Positions 7,236-43,198 of a stretch of 64,000 nt of DNA are shown here, one piece after another. Within the stretch, counting starts at the first letter, position 1, and the number at the start of each line of letters is the position of its first letter. The position numbers were made by a program, and so were the translations under genes. Below the pieces are notes generated by a model. It did not search any database and was not told where the DNA came from. It saw only the letters and a program-made list of their open reading frames with translations. The stretch covers positions 736,001 to 800,000 of the forward strand of contig OZ244999.1 in NCBI GenBank assembly GCA_965223265.1. The letters run 5' to 3'. This DNA comes from Planctomycetota bacterium. GTDB taxonomy: Bacteria > Planctomycetota > UBA8108 > SXIK01.

Positions 7236-7442
7236 CCCGACAGTTGCACAAGTTTTTGCAGGAAGGGCTCAGAAACCCTTTCCCTGAGGTTCGATCGGCA
7301 GTTGAGGGACGTCGTGGCGGACCACGTTTGGTGAGGTTGACGGTGTGCCGTGTTCCCCCTCGCCCACGCACACCCACACGCAAACTCTCACTCAGTCGCA
7401 ATCGCGCACGGTCTTAAGGTGCGTCTCTTTTGCAACGTTGGG
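7236..7442. mobile_element. MITE family B, copy 1 (207 bp, 6-bp TSD GTCAGT)
   Basis: Near-identical to 42814-43198. Imperfect TIRs CCCGACAGTTGC / GCAACGTTGGG; GTCAGT at 7230-7235 and 7443-7448. Confidence 0.8.
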
Positions 7443-11141: not shown

Positions 11142-13337
11142 ATGGAACTACTCATGACTTACCAAACGCGGAGCAAGGCTCTTCACCCGGCAACCTCGCT
11201 GGCGGCCGTGTTGACGCTGACACTTGTGGCGGCGGAGGTTCGTGCCGCCGGTCTGGATTGGACTTTCCCGTCCGGAAGTTGGCAGGTCGAAGGTGGTGCG
11301 CTCGTCGGCGACGGAACCGTTGAAGCTGCAGTTGCCGAGAGTGCGGGGAATTGGCAGTCGTTTGTTCTTAAGTTCGTTGCTCGGTTTCGCAGCGAAGCTC
11401 CGAAAGGGCGTTTCTCCGTCAGCTTCGGCGAGTCATCGCGGGCGCTTGTCAACGTTCACGCGGTGACCTTTGAACCACGCGCGGATGAGCTTCGTGTCGA
11501 GTACGTCGCTACGGGACACGGAGGTAGAACGATGCGCGGTCGGGGACGGTGGGTCCCACTCGCCAAAGAGCAGGACGTGCAAGTTGAGCTGCTCGTCGGT
11601 GGCGGACGTCTGCAGTTGCGTCTTGACGGTGAGCTCGCCGTCAACAGTGCTTTTGCTGCCGATGTGTCACCAAGTGGTCTTGCGCTCAAGGTCTCTAAGG
11701 CGCGAGTTGGGTTTCACGCCTTGGACGTCCAACCGCTCTCAAGGGAGGTGCTCGGTGAGCTTGCCGTCGGCAAGCGCCCGAATCACCGCTTTGTCGTCAT
11801 CGCGCATCGCGGCGCCTCTGCTCAGGCGCCGGAGAACACGCTGGCGGCGCTGCGCCTGGCCGCCGAGAGAGGGGCACAAGCGTGTGAATTCGATGTTCAC
11901 GCCACGCTCGACGGTGAAGTGGTGCTGATGCACGACAAGACTGTCGGCCGCACCACAGACTTCGCACAGGTGTTCAAGTCGGAGAAAGAAGGACACGTCG
12001 ATAAGCTAACTCTTGCTCAGCTTCGCCAGCTCGACGCCGGGCAGTGGAAGGGCAAGGAGTATCGCGGTGAACGCGTTCCCACCCTTGCTGAGGCGCTCGA
12101 GTTTTTGAGGGGCAAGATGACCCCGATCGTCGAGATCAAGCCGGGGGGAATTGGCATCGAGGTCGCCAAGGCGATCAAAGAGGCGAACATGGAAGCGGAA
12201 GTTTTCGTGCAGAGTTTCTCACCGCAAGCCATTCGCGATGTTCGTAGCGAGCTGCCGGGCGTGCCGACAGGGCTTCTCATCGGTGCTGACGATGAGGTCG
12301 ACCCCGTGGCGCGAGCCCGAGGTCACGTCGAGCGCGCGCGAGCCGCAGGTGCCAGTGCGGTCGTCTGCCACTTCTCGAACGTCAGCCCAGAGTATCTTGA
12401 GTCGGTACAGAGACGTGCGATGGCGGTTTGGGTGTATACCGTGGACGACGCCGCGATCGTGGCCATGCTTCGAGACATGGGCATCGATGGCATCATCACG
12501 AATGTCCCACGGCGAACCTTGGACGTCCGGTCGCGCCCGAGTGAGGATTCCGTAGCCGTGACCGGCGGGCTCGGAGTCCCTCCGGACGGCGGCGGTGAGG
12601 ATCCGGTGCTCGCAGAAGTCGACGAAGACATCGATCTGGACGGCACCGATTTGGAGGGAGCCTTTGGAAGCGTCACGATCGACGACGGCGAGGTCGAGGT
12701 CGTCGAGTTGGCTCGATTCTATTCGGAGGCAGTGGACTTGCCTCTCGTCGTCGAGGCCAGCGACGCGGAGTTGACCAGCACGGTAACAGTCGCCGCTGCG
12801 ATTCGCGACGCGGATCCGAGTGTCGTTCAGGAGCTCTTGGCGCAGAACGGGTTTGATCTCGAGGAGCGACGTCTGGCAAGTGGGCTGCAGCTGGTCATGC
12901 TGCGAGGGTCGAGCGCACGCGCGGCCGGGCGGCGTCTCGTGCCCGAGCCGATTGTGTCGGTGGGCACCGCGAGCGGAACTTCACACGAGCGCGAAGGTCC
13001 GTCGGAGGGTCGCTCGGCGCAAGTTGGAACCGCCAGCGAGGCAGGTGAAGGACTCGCCTACGGCGGCTTTCACGTCGTCGAGATTCCACCGATTCTCTTA
13101 GCCCAGACGCGCTTGGAGCGGCGCATGGGGGTGGTTGTGAGGAAGCATAAGGAGCGGGCGTTCGCTCCCGGTTCGCTGGGAGATGTGGTGCGTGACTACG
13201 ACGTCGTCACCCGCGTCGGTCGCCGCTCCATTCGCTCGCCCGCCGACTTTGTGCGCCGGGTGGAGGAGAAGCGCGGAAGCTATCAGATCGAGCTGTTGCG
13301 GAAGGGACGCAGCTACATTCTCGGTGTGCGGCCTTAG
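11142..13337 (+). CDS. Secreted multidomain glycerophosphodiester phosphodiesterase (GDPD) family protein
   Basis: IAHRGAS..APENTL, EFDVH, VLMHD, VEIK, VYTVD and GIDGIITN motifs; signal peptide, beta-sandwich N-domain and PDZ-like C-terminus. Confidence 0.85.
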   Translation: MELLMTYQTRSKALHPATSLAAVLTLTLVAAEVRAAGLDWTFPSGSWQVEGGALVGDGTVEAAVAESAGNWQSFVLKFVARFRSEAPKGRFSVSFGESSRALVNVHAVTFEPRADELRVEYVATGHGGRTMRGRGRWVPLAKEQDVQVELLVGGGRLQLRLDGELAVNSAFAADVSPSGLALKVSKARVGFHALDVQPLSREVLGELAVGKRPNHRFVVIAHRGASAQAPENTLAALRLAAERGAQACEFDVHATLDGEVVLMHDKTVGRTTDFAQVFKSEKEGHVDKLTLAQLRQLDAGQWKGKEYRGERVPTLAEALEFLRGKMTPIVEIKPGGIGIEVAKAIKEANMEAEVFVQSFSPQAIRDVRSELPGVPTGLLIGADDEVDPVARARGHVERARAAGASAVVCHFSNVSPEYLESVQRRAMAVWVYTVDDAAIVAMLRDMGIDGIITNVPRRTLDVRSRPSEDSVAVTGGLGVPPDGGGEDPVLAEVDEDIDLDGTDLEGAFGSVTIDDGEVEVVELARFYSEAVDLPLVVEASDAELTSTVTVAAAIRDADPSVVQELLAQNGFDLEERRLASGLQLVMLRGSSARAAGRRLVPEPIVSVGTASGTSHEREGPSEGRSAQVGTASEAGEGLAYGGFHVVEIPPILLAQTRLERRMGVVVRKHKERAFAPGSLGDVVRDYDVVTRVGRRSIRSPADFVRRVEEKRGSYQIELLRKGRSYILGVRP

Positions 13338-13487
13338 GCGACGGAGGTAGCGACAGAGGCGGAGACGGAGACAGAGACGAAAAGCCCGCCGCACACGAGA
13401 ACGCCCACGCCCACGCCCACGCCCACGCCCACGCCCACGCCCACGCAATCGCAATCGCAATCGCAATCGCAATCGTTCACGCCCACT
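13338..13487 (+). repeat. Bipartite hexamer array: G-block, then (CCCACG)7(CAATCG)5
   Basis: Read directly: gaggcg gagacg gagaca gagacg...; cccacg x7 at 13404-13445; caatcg x5 at 13446-13475. Confidence 0.95.
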
Positions 13488-13557
13488 GGCGCAGCCTCAT
13501 CGGAAACGCAAGGGATTGCGCCCGCCGCGAGCGCAGCGGGCGCATGGGCTCGCACGC

Positions 13558-13881
13558 TCAGCGAGTCAGCCCGCGAAGAAGCGCGAGAAGACGATCAAGC
13601 GTCTCAAGAGGCGTCGTGACGTCGTCGCCTCTCAGATCGCCCCAGGCCAGAGCCAGTCGTAGCGCGGTCTCGACCTCGCGCGCACTGCCGCGCGCGACGC
13701 GAAAGAGGTGCTGGCGATCTTTCCCAGCGCGCTCGGCGCCTTCCGAGAGGTTGAGCGCCACCGAAGAAGCAGCGCGCCGAAGCTGCCGATGCAGATCGGG
13801 ATCGAGCCGCCGAAGCCGCGCCAAAGGAATTCGCAAATCGCCAATCAAAGCGAGACTGACATCGAGAGCGATGAAACGCAT
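13558..13881 (-). CDS. Four-helix-bundle protein (23S rRNA IVP / bAvd-like)
   Basis: 107 aa with DLHRQLRRAASSVALNLSEG and FRVARGSAREVETAL; GGAGG SD before ATG 13881. Confidence 0.88.
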   Translation of the reverse strand: MRFIALDVSLALIGDLRIPLARLRRLDPDLHRQLRRAASSVALNLSEGAERAGKDRQHLFRVARGSAREVETALRLALAWGDLRGDDVTTPLETLDRLLALLRGLTR

Positions 13882-13926
13882 GTGAAGCCTCCGCAGAAAA
13901 GGTGAGTCGAAAGCCCGCCACGTCCG

Positions 13927-14048
13927 GGCGGCGGTACTGCACCCCCCAACGCGGAGCGGAGGGGCAGTCAAGGGCGCGAAGCGCCGAGCGGAGCGAGGGC
14001 ACCCTTGACTGCCCCGAGCACCGCGTACACTCGACAATGACCGCCGCC
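13927..14048. other. Nested inverted repeats (structured element) upstream of the four-helix-bundle gene
   Basis: Perfect 14-bp IR at 13961-13974 / 14002-14015 inside a perfect 9-bp IR at 13927-13935 / 14040-14048. Confidence 0.75.
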
Positions 14049-14062
14049 GTACGGTAACCCCT

Positions 14063-14258
14063 GCTACAGATTCAGAGACAGAGGCAGCATCAGAAGCAGA
14101 TACCGATCCAGAGACGGAGACGGGCTGCACACGCCCACGCTCACGCAAACGCTCACGCACACGCACACGCACACGCACACGCACACGCACACGCACACGC
14201 AAACGCACACGCCCACGCACACGCACACGCACACGCACACGCACACGCTCACGCAAAC
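14063..14258 (+). repeat. Bipartite hexamer array: G-block, then ~20 CACACG-type units
   Basis: gattca gagaca gaggca ... gagacg gagacg, then cacacg/cccacg/ctcacg/caaacg units. Confidence 0.95.
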
Positions 14259-14304
14259 AGGCGACTCGGACCCGCGCGAACTTGGCCGCCCGTCTGTTCT
14301 TCAG

Positions 14305-16755
14305 TCACTCCTTCTGAGCGCTGAACTCGGCCAGGATTTCTTTCAACGCGCGCTCCGTGCGCGGAGAGGCCCCGGCCAGCTCTTGCTTGATCGCGTCACG
14401 TGCCATCGGTGTCGCTCGCGCGATGTAGCTCAGCGCGATGGCCGCCGTCTCTCGGACGTTCGGCACTCGGTCTTCGAGTGCTTTGGCCAGCTGTGGGACG
14501 GCGTTGATCGCGTCGATGCCTAAGTGACCCAAACTGTTGGCTGCCGCTTCTCTCACTTCCCACGCCGCGTCACCTGTCACCATTGGGGCGACCGAGTTCA
14601 ACAGTTCGACCGCCATCGCCGGTGCGTCGCCGAGGAGTGATACTGCATGTCGACGCAGTCTTGTCTCCGGTGCTTTGAGAGCGTCACGAAACAGTTGCGC
14701 GGACTGGGGTGCCTTCGATTCTGCCAAGATGAGGCACTCGAGTAGCGTCGAGCGCACTTTGAGCGAGCCGGTGGGAAAAGACGCGGTGAGGACGTTCAGC
14801 GGTTTGTCCGAGCGCTGCAGGAGGCGTGCGATCGCGTTGCGCATGACCAACACCGCTGAGTCTGCCGCGCCATCGATTCGCCGCGATAGTGCCGCCGTCG
14901 CCGCCTCTGCTTCCGCCCCGATCTCGCCAAGCGCCAGGGCGATGTTCTCCTGGACAGTAGCGTCGGTTTCGACTTCTAAGATCTTCAAGAGTGCTGGAAC
15001 GGCAGGCGCCGCGTGTTCGCCGCCATGAGCGAGCGCGAGGGCAGCGCGGTGACGAACAGGGGAATTTCCGGTCGACTCGACAGCTGCGATGAGTTGCTTC
15101 ACGAAGTCGCTTTGGATGCCTTGGTCGCCGTGGATCTTGATTGTCGATCCGAGTGCCTGCGCCGCTACTTTAGCGACTTCGGAATCCTCGTCCGCCAGTC
15201 GCTCGAGCAGCGCGGGTGTTAGCTGCGTCACCGTCAGAGATTCCGCCACAATCAGGCGCTCGGACGCGAATGCCGCGGCGAGCCTCGTCTCCGATGCTGC
15301 ATCGCTGAGAGCGGTCACGAGCGGTGTTGTGTCTCCAGCGATTCCGGCGGCGCTGACCAGTGCGTTTTGAGCTCTCTTTGGTGGAGCCTGCTTCAAGTCT
15401 TTGGTGTAGGACTTGAATGCGTTCGGCGACCTGTGTGCGACGTTCTCGAGTGCGAGTTTCGCTGCCACATGAACGACATCGTCGTCCGGTTCCGACAGCG
15501 TCGCCACGAGAAGGGCGATCGTCTGGTATGCTGGCCCTCGGATGGAACCGAGTGTTTTCGCAGCCTCGGCACGCACCACGGCGTCGTCGTCTTTGAGGCG
15601 GCCGAGAACGGACGCGAACGCGGACGCGGAGCCATCACCGCGGCGGGCGACGCATTCCATCATCGCGCGGCGCACCGCTGGCGAGGGATCGAACACGTGG
15701 GTCAGGAGTTCCGACGAGAGTTTGCCATAGCGACGGCTGAAGACTTCCACTGCCCGCAGCCGAAAGGTCTCGGAGGCGCCTTCGAAACGATCCAGAATCG
15801 CGGATTCCGCCCACTGGCCAACGAGAACCGCAACAACGGTGTCGGCGATTTCAGGGAAGTCGGTGTCGAGAAGTGACACGAGACGGGGGAGGGCCGGATG
15901 TGCGGCGTCGCCCATGGGGTGGAGAGCGCGGGCTGCGGCAGCTCGCACTTTCGGCTCCGGGTCGTCGAGCTGCATCACGAGTCTTGGAGCGGCGGCGTCC
16001 GCGTCCAGACCTAAGACGCCGACAACGCGACACACTTCGACTCGGACTCGGGCCGTCGGGTGATCGAGCCCTTCGAGCAAGACGTCAAGGGACGCTGGAG
16101 CTTCATGGAAGGCAGCGACCAAGATGCGGTGGGGCAAATCGATCGCCCAACGGTCAGTCACGCCGGTGGGTGGGGCGATCGCCTCGTTGCCGGAGGGATC
16201 TGGGGCGCTGAGTTCTCGGTGGAACTTTGGATCGTCAAGACGCTCGACGACGTCGGTCATCAACTGCGGCGACTCGGCCGCAACGGGTGCGACGATTTCG
16301 ACAAGGTCATACACCTCGTCAGCGCTGCGGAAGATCCCACCACGAACGAGCCCCAAGATTCCGTCGCCGCGCTCTGCGGCGACAGCCGCGACAACTCTGA
16401 AGGCTCGAGCTCGCAGCCGCTCTTCGTCCTCGCGCTCGAGCAGCAGGATGCCTCGTTCGACAGAAAAAGGACTGAGACTTGCGAAGTGGCGTGGGCCGAA
16501 CGCCTCAAAAAGCTGCGTCCAAAGCTCTTCGTTCGTCGTCGCGTGAAAGAGTAGCTTGTCGACGGCGCGGCGTGATCCAAGGCTGCCAAGCTGCTCCGCG
16601 GCGTCGATCGTGCGGCCGTCGTCAGTCGATCCGAGCTGGCGCAGGTACCAGGCTTCGAGCAGATATCGGTGGCCAACGACCGCACTGACAACGAGCGCTA
16701 AGAGAGTTGCCGCGACGGTCCAGAGGACGACAGCACGAGTCCGACGCTGCTTCAT
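14305..16755 (-). CDS. Membrane-anchored HEAT repeat protein
   Basis: N-terminal TM segment, then repeated L.D.d..VR..AA.AL motifs. Confidence 0.88.
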   Translation of the reverse strand: MKQRRTRAVVLWTVAATLLALVVSAVVGHRYLLEAWYLRQLGSTDDGRTIDAAEQLGSLGSRRAVDKLLFHATTNEELWTQLFEAFGPRHFASLSPFSVERGILLLEREDEERLRARAFRVVAAVAAERGDGILGLVRGGIFRSADEVYDLVEIVAPVAAESPQLMTDVVERLDDPKFHRELSAPDPSGNEAIAPPTGVTDRWAIDLPHRILVAAFHEAPASLDVLLEGLDHPTARVRVEVCRVVGVLGLDADAAAPRLVMQLDDPEPKVRAAAARALHPMGDAAHPALPRLVSLLDTDFPEIADTVVAVLVGQWAESAILDRFEGASETFRLRAVEVFSRRYGKLSSELLTHVFDPSPAVRRAMMECVARRGDGSASAFASVLGRLKDDDAVVRAEAAKTLGSIRGPAYQTIALLVATLSEPDDDVVHVAAKLALENVAHRSPNAFKSYTKDLKQAPPKRAQNALVSAAGIAGDTTPLVTALSDAASETRLAAAFASERLIVAESLTVTQLTPALLERLADEDSEVAKVAAQALGSTIKIHGDQGIQSDFVKQLIAAVESTGNSPVRHRAALALAHGGEHAAPAVPALLKILEVETDATVQENIALALGEIGAEAEAATAALSRRIDGAADSAVLVMRNAIARLLQRSDKPLNVLTASFPTGSLKVRSTLLECLILAESKAPQSAQLFRDALKAPETRLRRHAVSLLGDAPAMAVELLNSVAPMVTGDAAWEVREAAANSLGHLGIDAINAVPQLAKALEDRVPNVRETAAIALSYIARATPMARDAIKQELAGASPRTERALKEILAEFSAQKE

Positions 16756-16852
16756 AGAATCCCTCGTGGGGCGGAGGTTCCAACCGAAGCTCGACGAATT
16801 CAGTATAACTTGAATACGGTGCTGTCGCTCTCTGTGCCTTCGCGGCGGAGAG

Positions 16853-18523
16853 TCAGGCTTCCACCGGACCCTCGGTTCCGCCCGTGAATTTCTCATCCTC
16901 GGCGGCGTGTCCGACCAACACTTCGGCCTTGTAACCGCCGCGCGCCTTGAAGTAGAGGATGAGAAGCAAATACCCAATGAACATGATGACCGGGAAGATC
17001 GCCATATTTGCTAGGGCGCCTTGATTGCTCTTGTTACGTGCGGCGGCGATTTCGGCGTTTACGGTGTTGGCCTCGGCTTCAGGGAGCGCCTTCACCGCGT
17101 CGGCGAGTTTGTCGTCTGAAATTGCGTCGTAGGCGATGATTTCGTAGATATCCCGACTCTCAAGAGTGGTCAATTTGCCCTCTTGGATGAGACCAGGAAC
17201 CTTCTGCGCGGCCTCTGACTCAACAACCGCATCGATCTGTTTCTGAGCTTGAAGCGACCCGATGTAAGGAAACCCAAGCGTACCAACCGCTAGCATTCCG
17301 ATGCCGCTGATCGCATTGAGAGTCAGGGCACCACCCTTAGGTGTTTGCTCAGAGACCACGCCGAGCATGGTCGGCCAGAAGAACGTCTTGCCGACACCAT
17401 ACAGAGTTGCCGCGGCGAAGATCATCGCAAACCCCGCCGCTGTCGACAAGGTGACCAATCCGACGATTGCCAGAATCGTGCTGATCGCCAATAGGCCGAG
17501 TGGCGAAAGTGAGTGCACGATGGGCCCGGCGAAGAAACGCAGCACCATCATGATCGCCGACGTGTAGACGAGGACCCATCCAGGATGCCAATCCGATAGC
17601 ACGCCTTCCATGATAGCGGTGATCCAACCGTCAGTACCGATTTCGGTGGTCGCGAGCGGCATCATGATCAGCACGAGGACGAACATGAGTCCACGCCCGA
17701 GCGCGCGCGTGTAAAGCCCGAAACCAACGACGATGGCGACTCCAATCGCGATGAAAACGCCTTTCTGCGCTCCCGAAAGCTCGCCCCCGCCGGAGAAGAA
17801 ATCCATGAGCTGCAGTGTCACCAGGAAGCCGACGATGGCTGCGCCAAGGATTCCAAACTCGGAAAGCATTTCGCGATAGCTGACGCCCGAGGCAACGCGT
17901 TCCTGCACTGGGAATCTGAGTGGAATCAGCATTAGGAAGTAGATCACCGCAGGAATTGCGATGATTCCCACTTTGATCCACCAATCAGTGATTTCTAACT
18001 TGTCCAAAGAGATCGTTAAGATTCCGGCGAAAACCAACCCTCCGGGCCAACCAGCATGAAGAATGTTGAGCCACTTGGTCTTTTCACGATGGAACATCGT
18101 AGCGACCACCGGGTTGATGAACGCTTCGACCGTTCCATTGCCGAGGCCGAGAATTAAGCTGCCCCAGTAAAGAAGGTTGTAAGCGAGGTCGACGTTCTGG
18201 GTTTCCCCATGCGAGACGAAGTAGGCGCTGACTCCCATCACCGCCCAGATCGTATGGCCGAGAAAGGCCATGATCATCGCGACCTTGTAGCCGATCCGAT
18301 CGATGAAGAGGCTGAAGCCGATGATGCTGACCGCGAACGGCCAGATGCCAATTCCGGCCAGGCGTCCCGCTTGTGCCGGATCGAGGTCAAACTCCTCGGC
18401 CCACGTATTGATGAGAAACATGCGGGCGATGAAGCCGAACGCGGTGGTGATGAGGGCTAAGAAACAGCCCCAGAAAAGAAGCTGGTCGTGGGAGGTCAGG
18501 CGGTCGTTGCTCGCCTCGTTCAT
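16853..18523 (-). CDS. MFS transporter
   Basis: About 14 hydrophobic segments; [25 protein letters not shown] and [11 protein letters not shown] motifs. Confidence 0.88.
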
Positions 18524-23076: not shown

Positions 23077-23099
23077 TGCACCGGCGGCGCGGGGAGTGT

Positions 23100-23200
23100 A
23101 AGGCAGAGGCAGAGTCGCCCACGCGAACGCTCACGCTCACGCCCACCCTCATGCGAACGCAAAACGCCGGCGAAGATCAAACGCAGTCCGACTCAGACCC
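23100..23200 (+). repeat. Short degenerate bipartite hexamer array
   Basis: aaggca gaggca gagtcg cccacg cgaacg ctcacg ctcacg cccacc. Confidence 0.7.
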
Positions 23201-42645: not shown

Positions 42646-42654
42646 TCCAGATCG

Positions 42655-42775
42655 GACGCAGAGGAGGATACAGTGGCAGCGGCGGATACAGATACGGATA
42701 CGGAATCAGAGACAGATACGGATACGGCAGAAGCAGAGTACTCCCACTCCCACGCCCACGCAATCGTGGAGCTCG
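42655..42775 (+). repeat. Bipartite hexamer array
   Basis: gataca gatacg gatacg gaatca gagaca gatacg gatacg ..., then cccact cccacg cccacg caatcg. Confidence 0.85.
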
Positions 42776-42813
42776 GATTCAGAGACCAGAAGCCGGCGAC
42801 ACCCTGAGTCCGC

Positions 42814-43198
42814 CCCGACAGTTGCGTAAGTTTTCGCAGGAAGGGCTCAGAAACCCTTTCCCTGAGGTTCGATCGGCAGTTGAGGGACGTCGTGGCGGAC
42901 CTCACGTTTGGTGAGGTTGACGGTGTGCCGTGTTCCCCCTCGCCCACGCACACCCACACGCAAACGTACACGCAAACTCTCACTCAATCGCAATCCCGCA
43001 CGGTCTTAACAGCCTGTTGAAAAAGTGCTTCGAGCCGAAAACTGGTCTCTTTGCGTCCAGATCGGCCGCGGCAAACGCAGGCAATCTTCGGGATTTTCGA
43101 GTATTGACGCGGTCGAGCTGGGCGTGAAGAGGCCAGTTTCTTCGGCCGAATGACTTTTTCAACGGGCTGTTAAGGCGCGTCTCTTTTGCAACGTTGGG
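42814..43198. mobile_element. MITE family B, copy 2 (TSD GTCCGC), carrying a nested MITE A
   Basis: Homologous to 7236-7442; GTCCGC at 42808-42813 and 43199-43204. Confidence 0.8.
43010..43169. mobile_element. MITE family A (TSD TTAA), nested in MITE B
   Basis: TTAA at 43006-43009 and 43170-43173; the empty site with a single TTAA is at 7414-7417. Confidence 0.92.

Follow-up and report, generated by a model that had tools for sequence, protein, structure and literature searches.

What does a small four-helix-bundle gene do between two tracts of hexanucleotide repeats? The locus considered here lies in a 64,000-nucleotide (nt) stretch of a Planctomycetota bacterium (assembly GCA_965223265.1, contig OZ244999.1), hereafter the window, which spans positions 736001-800000 of a single-contig 9.18-Mb genome with 60.8% G+C. 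Coordinates refer to the window unless the genome is named. An open reading frame (ORF) of 107 amino acids (aa; 13558-13881, minus strand) stands between a GDPD-domain gene (11142-13337, plus strand) and a HEAT-repeat gene (14305-16977, minus strand), with hexamer arrays on both sides. Its family, PF05635, is to our knowledge a large one whose sole characterised member is Avd, the accessory protein of diversity-generating retroelements (DGRs); the name of the family comes from ribosomal RNA (rRNA) intervening sequences (IVSs), the role of which remains unexplained. The explanation that we favour on balance, with considerable reserve, is a non-autonomous cassette embedded in satellite repeats, with an RNA leader and a cis-acting protein, which would be copied between satellite loci by a replication-coupled process that uses the arrays.

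A conserved protein in many intact copies

The 107-aa product belongs to the PF05635/TIGR02436 four-helix-bundle family by both profile and modelled fold. It scores 48.1 bits against PF05635 (cut-off 33.8) and 47.9 bits against TIGR02436 (cut-off 24), and its AlphaFold model is all-helical, with a predicted local distance difference test (pLDDT) value of 96.5. A profile of the protein and its relatives matches Protein Data Bank (PDB) entry 2GSC at E = 9.2e-13, and the model superposes on 2GSC with a template modelling (TM) score of 0.86 and on 2RLD with a score of 0.84. These two entries (Xanthomonas XCC0516 and Bacteroides BT_0352, five chains in each) are the closest solved relatives, and neither has a function or genomic context attached. 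The Avd-like fold noticed in a preliminary description of the locus, made from the sequence alone, is borne out: the model superposes on bAvd (PDB 4DWL) with a TM score of 0.83, a root-mean-square deviation of 1.8 Å and 8% identity, and when the Avd chains from the DGR ribonucleoprotein are included with bAvd, the scores range from 0.80 to 0.85.

The same description called the gene lone, which does not hold, since the genome contains 39 PF05635 matches, this gene among them, and 36 exceed the cut-off. Intact ORFs of exactly 107 aa number 36, comprising 19 of subfamily A (including this copy) and 17 of subfamily B, and the three further matches are fragments. The two subfamilies are about 51% identical, with a synonymous divergence of 1.76 between them, and all 36 coding sequences are mutually distinct. 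For A copies the median ratio of nonsynonymous to synonymous divergence (dN/dS) is 0.13, and for B copies 0.14, at a dS of about 0.6, and, as judged by these ratios, the cassette ORFs are shown to be under purifying selection. All 36 ORFs stay intact where free-riding cargo would be expected to decay, and the protein would for this reason act preferentially in cis, its main target being the transcript or element that encodes it.

The copies also define the limits of the element. With the ATG as reference, DNA homology common to all A copies begins at about -180 (or -128) and reaches +363. In the three closest copies, which are 94-97% identical, it extends from -314 to +491 and ends inside the arrays, and the unique flanks beyond it are unrelated. 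A 31-nt core of the leader, allowing five mismatches or fewer, occurs at 39 genome sites. At 35 of these a four-helix-bundle gene or fragment follows downstream within 400 nt, and the other four are at array loci. The locus thus appears, with somewhat better support than not, to be one copy of a multi-copy non-autonomous cassette of about 0.57 kb that consists of leader, gene and GC hairpin. The earlier suggestion of a self-contained cassette gains from the 36 intact copies and from the placement of the leader core.

Single copies depart from this layout. In the B-type copy at genome 5175815-5176562 the leader hairpin is cleanly deleted, the 107-aa ORF is intact, and a 219-bp (ACTCGC)36 array extends to -103. 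At about 487000-497000 of the genome, segmental repeats of roughly 1.7 kb follow one another, each with a hexamer array at its boundary, up to a B-type cassette at the end of the run.

Hexamer arrays accompany the gene in this genome and in relatives

On the plus strand, both flanks of the gene read a GA-type tract followed by a C-type tract. This same-orientation, bipartite arrangement was seen in the preliminary description and is recovered by Tandem Repeats Finder (TRF) and in the sequence itself. Across the genome the GA-type unit is C[A/G]GA+NN and the C-type unit is ACGC+NN, in which position 5 is A (0.56) or C (0.35) and position 6 is C (0.62) or A (0.37); the units therefore have a fixed 4-base core and two variable positions. 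Cassette orientation is likewise fixed: B genes have their sense sequence on the strand where the GA-type tract comes before the C-type array, A genes on the other strand, so that the layout amounts to a chain of (GA, C, module) units. Seven neighbouring A/B pairs are convergent.

The TRF catalogue holds 311 hexamer-based arrays (30.2 kb) in 214 loci, and intergenic regions were delimited by home-made, approximate gene calls, in which 5702 coding sequences take up 85% of the genome. An array lies within -450 to +300 of 35 of the 39 PF05635 matches. Among intergenic regions, 29 of the 32 that bear a cassette contain an array, compared with 129 of 4268 others, and among regions of 700-2500 bp the counts are 26/27 and 30/389. 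Distances to the gene are stereotyped, with 17 of 21 upstream arrays ending between -186 and -251 and 14 of 21 downstream arrays starting between +379 and +438.

The association extends beyond this genome. A degenerate-pattern scan with one genome per species yielded 329 relatives, and the best 80 loci, from Myxococcota and Planctomycetota (35 assemblies), were used; to qualify as near, an array of period 5-8 had to contain 4 or more units and lie no farther than 450 nt from the gene on its upstream side or 250 nt on its downstream side. Such an array is present in 61 of the best 80 loci, and 31 of the 35 assemblies contain at least one array-bearing locus (hand tally). The 88 near arrays comprise 80 of period 6 and 8 of period 7, and their units vary by locus (GCCGCA, GGCTCC, CGGATT, CGAGTC and others). 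Array density in these loci is 1.86 per kb near the gene and 0.18 per kb farther off. A PF05635 gene is found in 6 of 30 relatives, often at a contig end. None of three same-family genomes has a PF05635 match, and none has an ACGCNN array. In the closest of them the GDPD homolog, 55% identical over the domain, has other neighbours, unrelated to the HEAT gene. The tie between cassette and short-period arrays is thereby shown both for this genome and for relatives of two phyla. The preliminary description had expected both enrichment of arrays beside homologs and a lack of synteny among relatives, and the counts agree with it on each point.

Satellites that arise independently, together with a cassette that is merely tolerated in the same gene-poor spots and has a host function unrelated to the arrays, could produce some of these patterns. 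Arrays occupy the 129 intergenic regions without the gene, they stand beside repetitive extragenic palindromic elements (REPs), the repeat module X (about 24 copies in the genome) and a miniature inverted-repeat transposable element (MITE), and they prefer convergent (62/881) over divergent (21/951) intergenic regions. Such passive co-residence is nevertheless unlikely in view of the ten-fold local enrichment beside homologs of two phyla whose units differ, the stereotyped distances, the near-universal presence of arrays in length-matched cassette regions, and the joint absence of gene and ACGCNN arrays from the three same-family genomes. The gene-less loci bear on a further claim. The preliminary description supposed that the protein may help to make the arrays, a role that is hard to maintain when arrays likewise flank REPs, another repeat module and the gene-less regions, which often contain these other repeat families. 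The satellites would rather be a shared substrate of several repeat families than the product of the cassette alone.

Two other accounts of the arrays were discarded. The palindrome GT[AG]CCGG[CT]AC, found where GA-type tracts meet C-type ones, has 67 sites in the genome, only 4 of them close to arrays. Arrays as translated sequence or read-through tails do not fit either: the frames past the upstream stop codon differ by locus, being (T/A-E)n(TP)n here, (D/E-x)n at 42646 and (R-x)n at 23077, and arrays occur in both orientations to neighbouring genes.

A covarying leader upstream of the gene

The 179 nt upstream of the gene fold at -94.8 kcal/mol (z = -3.38), and none of 200 shuffles fold as well. 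The nested stem-loop of about 120 nt that the preliminary description placed upstream of the gene is found at 13928-14047 (minus strand) and is supported by covariation as well as folding. Leaders of 30 of the 36 copies were aligned, omitting five A copies in which an insertion displaces the 5' half and one B copy in which the hairpin is deleted. The RNAalifold consensus contains 37 pairs, 12 of them with compensatory change. On this structure 97.6% of cells are paired, compared with 34-63% when partners are slid by 1-3 columns. Eleven pairs are changed on both sides, and ten of these belong to the 13 pairs of the middle helix, which answers the earlier question of whether the leader covaries. 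Covariation scores 0.274, where shuffles score 0.131 and none of 500 attain the observed value; because the leaders are paralogs, this shuffle control overstates significance, and the slid control does not.

The 42-nt apex of the leader is nearly invariant between A and B. The same apex is also found in loci of a genome from another family, and in loci of Planctomycetota metagenome-assembled genomes that may be of the same or a near genome. In relatives, leaders inspected by eye are long hairpins, with the 3' arm often over the ribosome-binding site. In A and B alike, several leader pairs are Watson-Crick in some copies and G-U in others when read on the sense strand. Since the sense-strand structure is present in both subfamilies, which lie on opposite strands relative to the fork, the conserved structure is most likely RNA and not lagging-strand DNA. 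As far as folding and covariation can indicate, a leader of about 180 nt would on the whole be expected to fold as RNA into a nested stem-loop that ends just ahead of the ribosome-binding site.

The 3' side of the gene is less distinctive. The 81-nt trailer as a whole is unremarkable in stability (z = -1.29; 20 of 200 shuffles fold as well). The preliminary description had linked a trailer hairpin to the leader through a related loop word. The 9-bp hairpin is present at 13517-13544, and the trailer contains GAGCGCAGCG, as does the consensus leader apex, with GAGCGGAGCG in the leader of this copy; other A subgroups carry different trailer loops, and the loop word was dropped as a conserved feature.

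The layout of leader and arrays also bears on an IVS-like RNA element, in which the arrays would act as complementary arms that pair, RNase III would cut the resulting stem, and a gene-bearing RNA would be released. The protein family is the same, and among the 14 relatives' loci with comparable arrays on both sides, seven, all from Myxococcota, have complementary units (e.g. GCTTCC/CGGAAG, AGCAGG/GCTCCT). At this locus, as in the remaining two-sided loci, including those of Planctomycetota and Sandaracinaceae, the flanking arrays are direct and for that reason cannot pair. The conserved stem-loop moreover lies wholly upstream without enclosing the gene, and the locus is outside rRNA, all of which renders this mechanism improbable here.

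Arrays and cassettes follow the direction of replication

By cumulative GC skew, replication starts near 7.9 Mb of the genome and terminates near 3.5 Mb. Of 111 clusters of C-type arrays, 88 have their C-rich strand as the leading-strand sequence, and the ratio is similar across the orientations of the flanking genes (27/5, 28/8, 12/4 and 21/6). Predicted coding sequences, by comparison, are on the leading strand in only 53% of cases. The cassettes are polar as well: 16 of 17 B genes and 4 of 20 A genes are co-directional with the fork. Arrays and cassettes are tied to replication rather than to the transcription of their neighbours, and this polarity is the main reason for favouring a replication-coupled DNA process of spread.

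Polarity of this kind is also what single-strand transposition, as in the IS608 family, predicts. A candidate enzyme exists in the form of a RAYT-like Y1_Tnp gene (215 aa, HUH-like motif NHVHLLV; genome 4206500-4207147). It is flanked by REPs (a GTAGCAGGCAC... hairpin) interleaved with CACACG/CTCACG hexamers, and downstream of it nine or more REP-plus-hexamer units are arranged in tandem. The REP element has several hundred genome sites, 319 for its 11-nt start word alone. Its first 8 nt, GTAGCAGG, recur in this copy of the cassette at the 5' edge only (14060-14067, minus strand), and another A subgroup has full REPs on both sides of the cassette. A RAYT, an IS200-like HUH enzyme, could accordingly be imagined to move cassettes and arrays in trans as single-stranded DNA, the cassette being a cargo-bearing REPIN-like element. 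The REPs themselves, however, are weakly polar (212/319 sites, 60/117 loci), no GTAG word is seen at the edges of B cassettes, and the Y1_Tnp match is weak, at 26-27 bits. Transfer by this enzyme is a distinctly unlikely account of the cassettes.

Reverse transcriptases and a recombinase element within the leader

The genome's RVT_1 matches include no DGR-type reverse transcriptase near any cassette copy. They consist of four identical frames (449-455 aa) at genome 1895554, 3424405, 3516453 and 5913461, outside the window and far from the cassettes, and are probably group II intron proteins, although this assignment is a guess. A retroelement accessory role, in which the Avd-like protein would work with a reverse transcriptase in trans and the arrays would be products of repeated short-template reverse transcription, has in its favour the match of the fold to bAvd and the DGR Avd chains and the array unit of a fixed 4-nt core with two variable positions. 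It is very improbable all the same. The sole RVT_1 genes are these distant frames, identical at 455 aa; identity to bAvd is 8%; and more than 90% of units have A or C at the variable positions instead of A-to-any change, a pattern on which DGR-like adenine mutagenesis of the array units was rejected. No template/variable repeat pair was seen, and no search was aimed at one.

The preliminary description stated that no reverse transcriptase or recombinase lies inside the cassette. The first part stands, all RVT_1 genes being elsewhere, whereas the second must be qualified, as a serine-recombinase element sits within the leader of six copies. The element, 2.7 kb long, codes for a large serine recombinase of 702 aa (Resolvase + Recombinase + Zn_ribbon_recom) and has a 149-aa ORF. 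Its six copies (genome 2581199-2583918 and near 6.779, 7.186, 8.598, 8.835 and 8.980 Mb) are about 99.9% identical and are all inserted at one point of the A leader, the 5' base of the inner stem, with the 5' half of the leader on the far side of the element. The conserved leader appears to serve this element as attachment site, and the element does not look like the cassette's own mover. A MITE copy breaks the leader of a B cassette at genome 4.9135 Mb. The cassettes also act as landing sites for other mobile elements.

Proposed mechanism and the points that weigh against it

In the favoured explanation of a satellite-embedded cassette, the protein would, most simply, bind the leader apex and/or the hexamer repeats. 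Such binding in cis would explain the intactness of all 36 ORFs. The cassette would be copied between satellite loci by a replication-coupled DNA process using the arrays, for instance recombination or template switching inside the C-type arrays, or the work in trans of a single-strand transposase.

Several observations weigh against this explanation. The copies are paralogs, several of them duplicated together with their arrays, and counts within the genome are non-independent. A dS of about 0.6 makes many copies old, and any ongoing mobility would be conjectural. No mover of the cassette has been identified, and no empty site was found, the GDPD homolog of the closest same-family genome having other neighbours. 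Arrays without the gene, and arrays beside REPs, indicate that a generic effect of repeat-tolerant intergenic regions may contribute, and the enrichment control depends on the home-made gene calls. Finally, the arrays flanking a cassette share their unit in 4 of 10 cases (permutation p = 0.38 against shuffled pairs), and simple insertion into a pre-existing array, which would be split by it, finds no support.

A bolder version can be put forward tentatively, as a conjecture that is rather doubtful. The PF05635 oligomer would be a repeat-register binder that reads one 4-nt core per 6-nt step, and together with leader and satellites it would constitute an unrecognised self-propagating, transposase-free element. 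The element would spread, and its satellites would grow, through replication-coupled template switching, A and B would read complementary strands of the same arrays, and the ORF-bearing rRNA IVS would be a special case that landed in rRNA.

If the protein does read the leader or the repeats, the PF05635 family gains a function, and the otherwise rare hexanucleotide satellites in bacterial genomes from at least two phyla are explained. Otherwise, the cassettes remain markers of repeat islands at which short-read assemblies break, and many relatives are found at contig ends. The system is open to direct test, with a covarying leader RNA and its invariant apex, satellites of 4+2 units, replication polarity, and 36 intact, selected copies of fixed architecture.

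Comparison with described systems

The nearest described system is the ORF-bearing IVS of 23S rRNA. One with an S23p ORF is described from Coxiella burnetii, together with the reductive evolution of S23p (PMC4990558). The IVS resembles the cassette in having a PF05635 protein and an ORF tied to a stable RNA stem-loop, and both are small elements of a kind regarded as selfish, with a patchy distribution that suggests horizontal spread. The cassette differs in its position, which is not within a 23S rRNA helix but between GDPD and HEAT-repeat genes, with 36 intergenic copies. Complementary termini enclosing the ORF are lacking, direct hexamer satellites are present, and the stem-loop is 5' of the gene. 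Its ORFs are under purifying selection, in contrast to the reductive evolution described for S23p (PMC4990558).

The Avd of DGRs is small and basic, and it binds both RNA and a polymerase. With bAvd (PDB 4DWL; 8UBE and related entries) the cassette protein has the four-helix-bundle fold in common, and the two systems are set apart by the low identity, by the lack of an adjacent reverse transcriptase and by the multi-copy state of the cassette; template/variable repeats, which dedicated means were not used to search for, were not seen. PF05635 is linked to Avd in PMC10053308.

REP/REPIN elements with a RAYT resemble the cassette in being multi-copy and intergenic, in their hairpins, in the GTAGCAGG word, in the hexamer context and in the presence of a RAYT gene in the genome. 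The cassette is unlike them in its conserved protein gene and its 120-nt covarying leader, and the REPs of this genome are weakly polar. We know of no REPs that sit in hexamer satellites elsewhere. A full-text literature search, which did not cover supplements, returned no paper that links PF05635 or Avd-like genes to hexanucleotide arrays, and no described mobile element accounts for the hexamer-flanked PF05635 cassette.

Organization of the locus and neighbouring repeats

From left to right, the left GA-type tract (13338-13400, plus strand) begins 1 base past the GDPD stop codon and consists of degenerate GACGGA/GACAGA/GGCGGA units, of which TRF detects GACGGA/GACAGA units at 13340-13379. 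The left C-type arrays follow (13401-13475, plus strand), with (ACGCCC)7.7 at 13401-13446 and (CGCAAT)5.3 at 13444-13475, both with 100% matches; the CAATCG part is homologous among the four closest copies, which have 1 to 6 units each. The 3' trailer (13476-13557, minus strand) contains the 9-bp GC hairpin and is homologous to all A copies until about +363 from the ATG. The gene itself (13558-13881, minus strand) is placed in subfamily A. Between gene and leader lies a proximal 5' untranslated stretch (13882-13927, minus strand), with GGAGG at 13888-13892, 6 nt ahead of the ATG.

Beyond the leader and the GTAGCAGG word, the right GA-type tract (14068-14116, plus strand) is homologous in the four closest copies and hence travels with the cassette. 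The right C-type array (14117-14258, plus strand) is formed by (GCACAC)21.5 with CCCACG/CTCACG/CAAACG variants and ends 46 nt from the HEAT gene stop codon. Its repeat at 14127-14255 (TRF score 209) is the top-scoring period-6 array of the window.

Searches of the locus for known signals returned little. Rfam (evalue mode) matches no family in 13300-14300, a sigma-70 promoter scan gives 0 sites, and there is one terminator-like site where 1.6 are expected. A longer protein was considered and rejected, as frames from the arrays into the gene are open in some copies only. Public sequencing contigs that cover the locus (four runs, one study) break at the arrays, and none spans the cassette; no RNA run is listed among those containing the locus.

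Elsewhere in the window, stand-alone bipartite arrays (GA-type, C-type) occur at 42646-42980 and 23077-23160 without a four-helix-bundle gene, and both begin only a few bases from the stop codons of ordinary genes. Module X has window copies at about 7236-7350 and 42813-42930. An IS110-family transposase gene (PF01548 + PF02371; 7350-8684, plus strand) adjoins a GA-type array and the former copy. A 160-bp MITE at 43010-43169, with terminal inverted repeats (CAGCCTGTTGAAAAAGT...) and a TTAA duplication, is inserted in a repeat module, and the paralogous module copy at 7.4 kb is MITE-free, with a single TTAA at 7414-7417.

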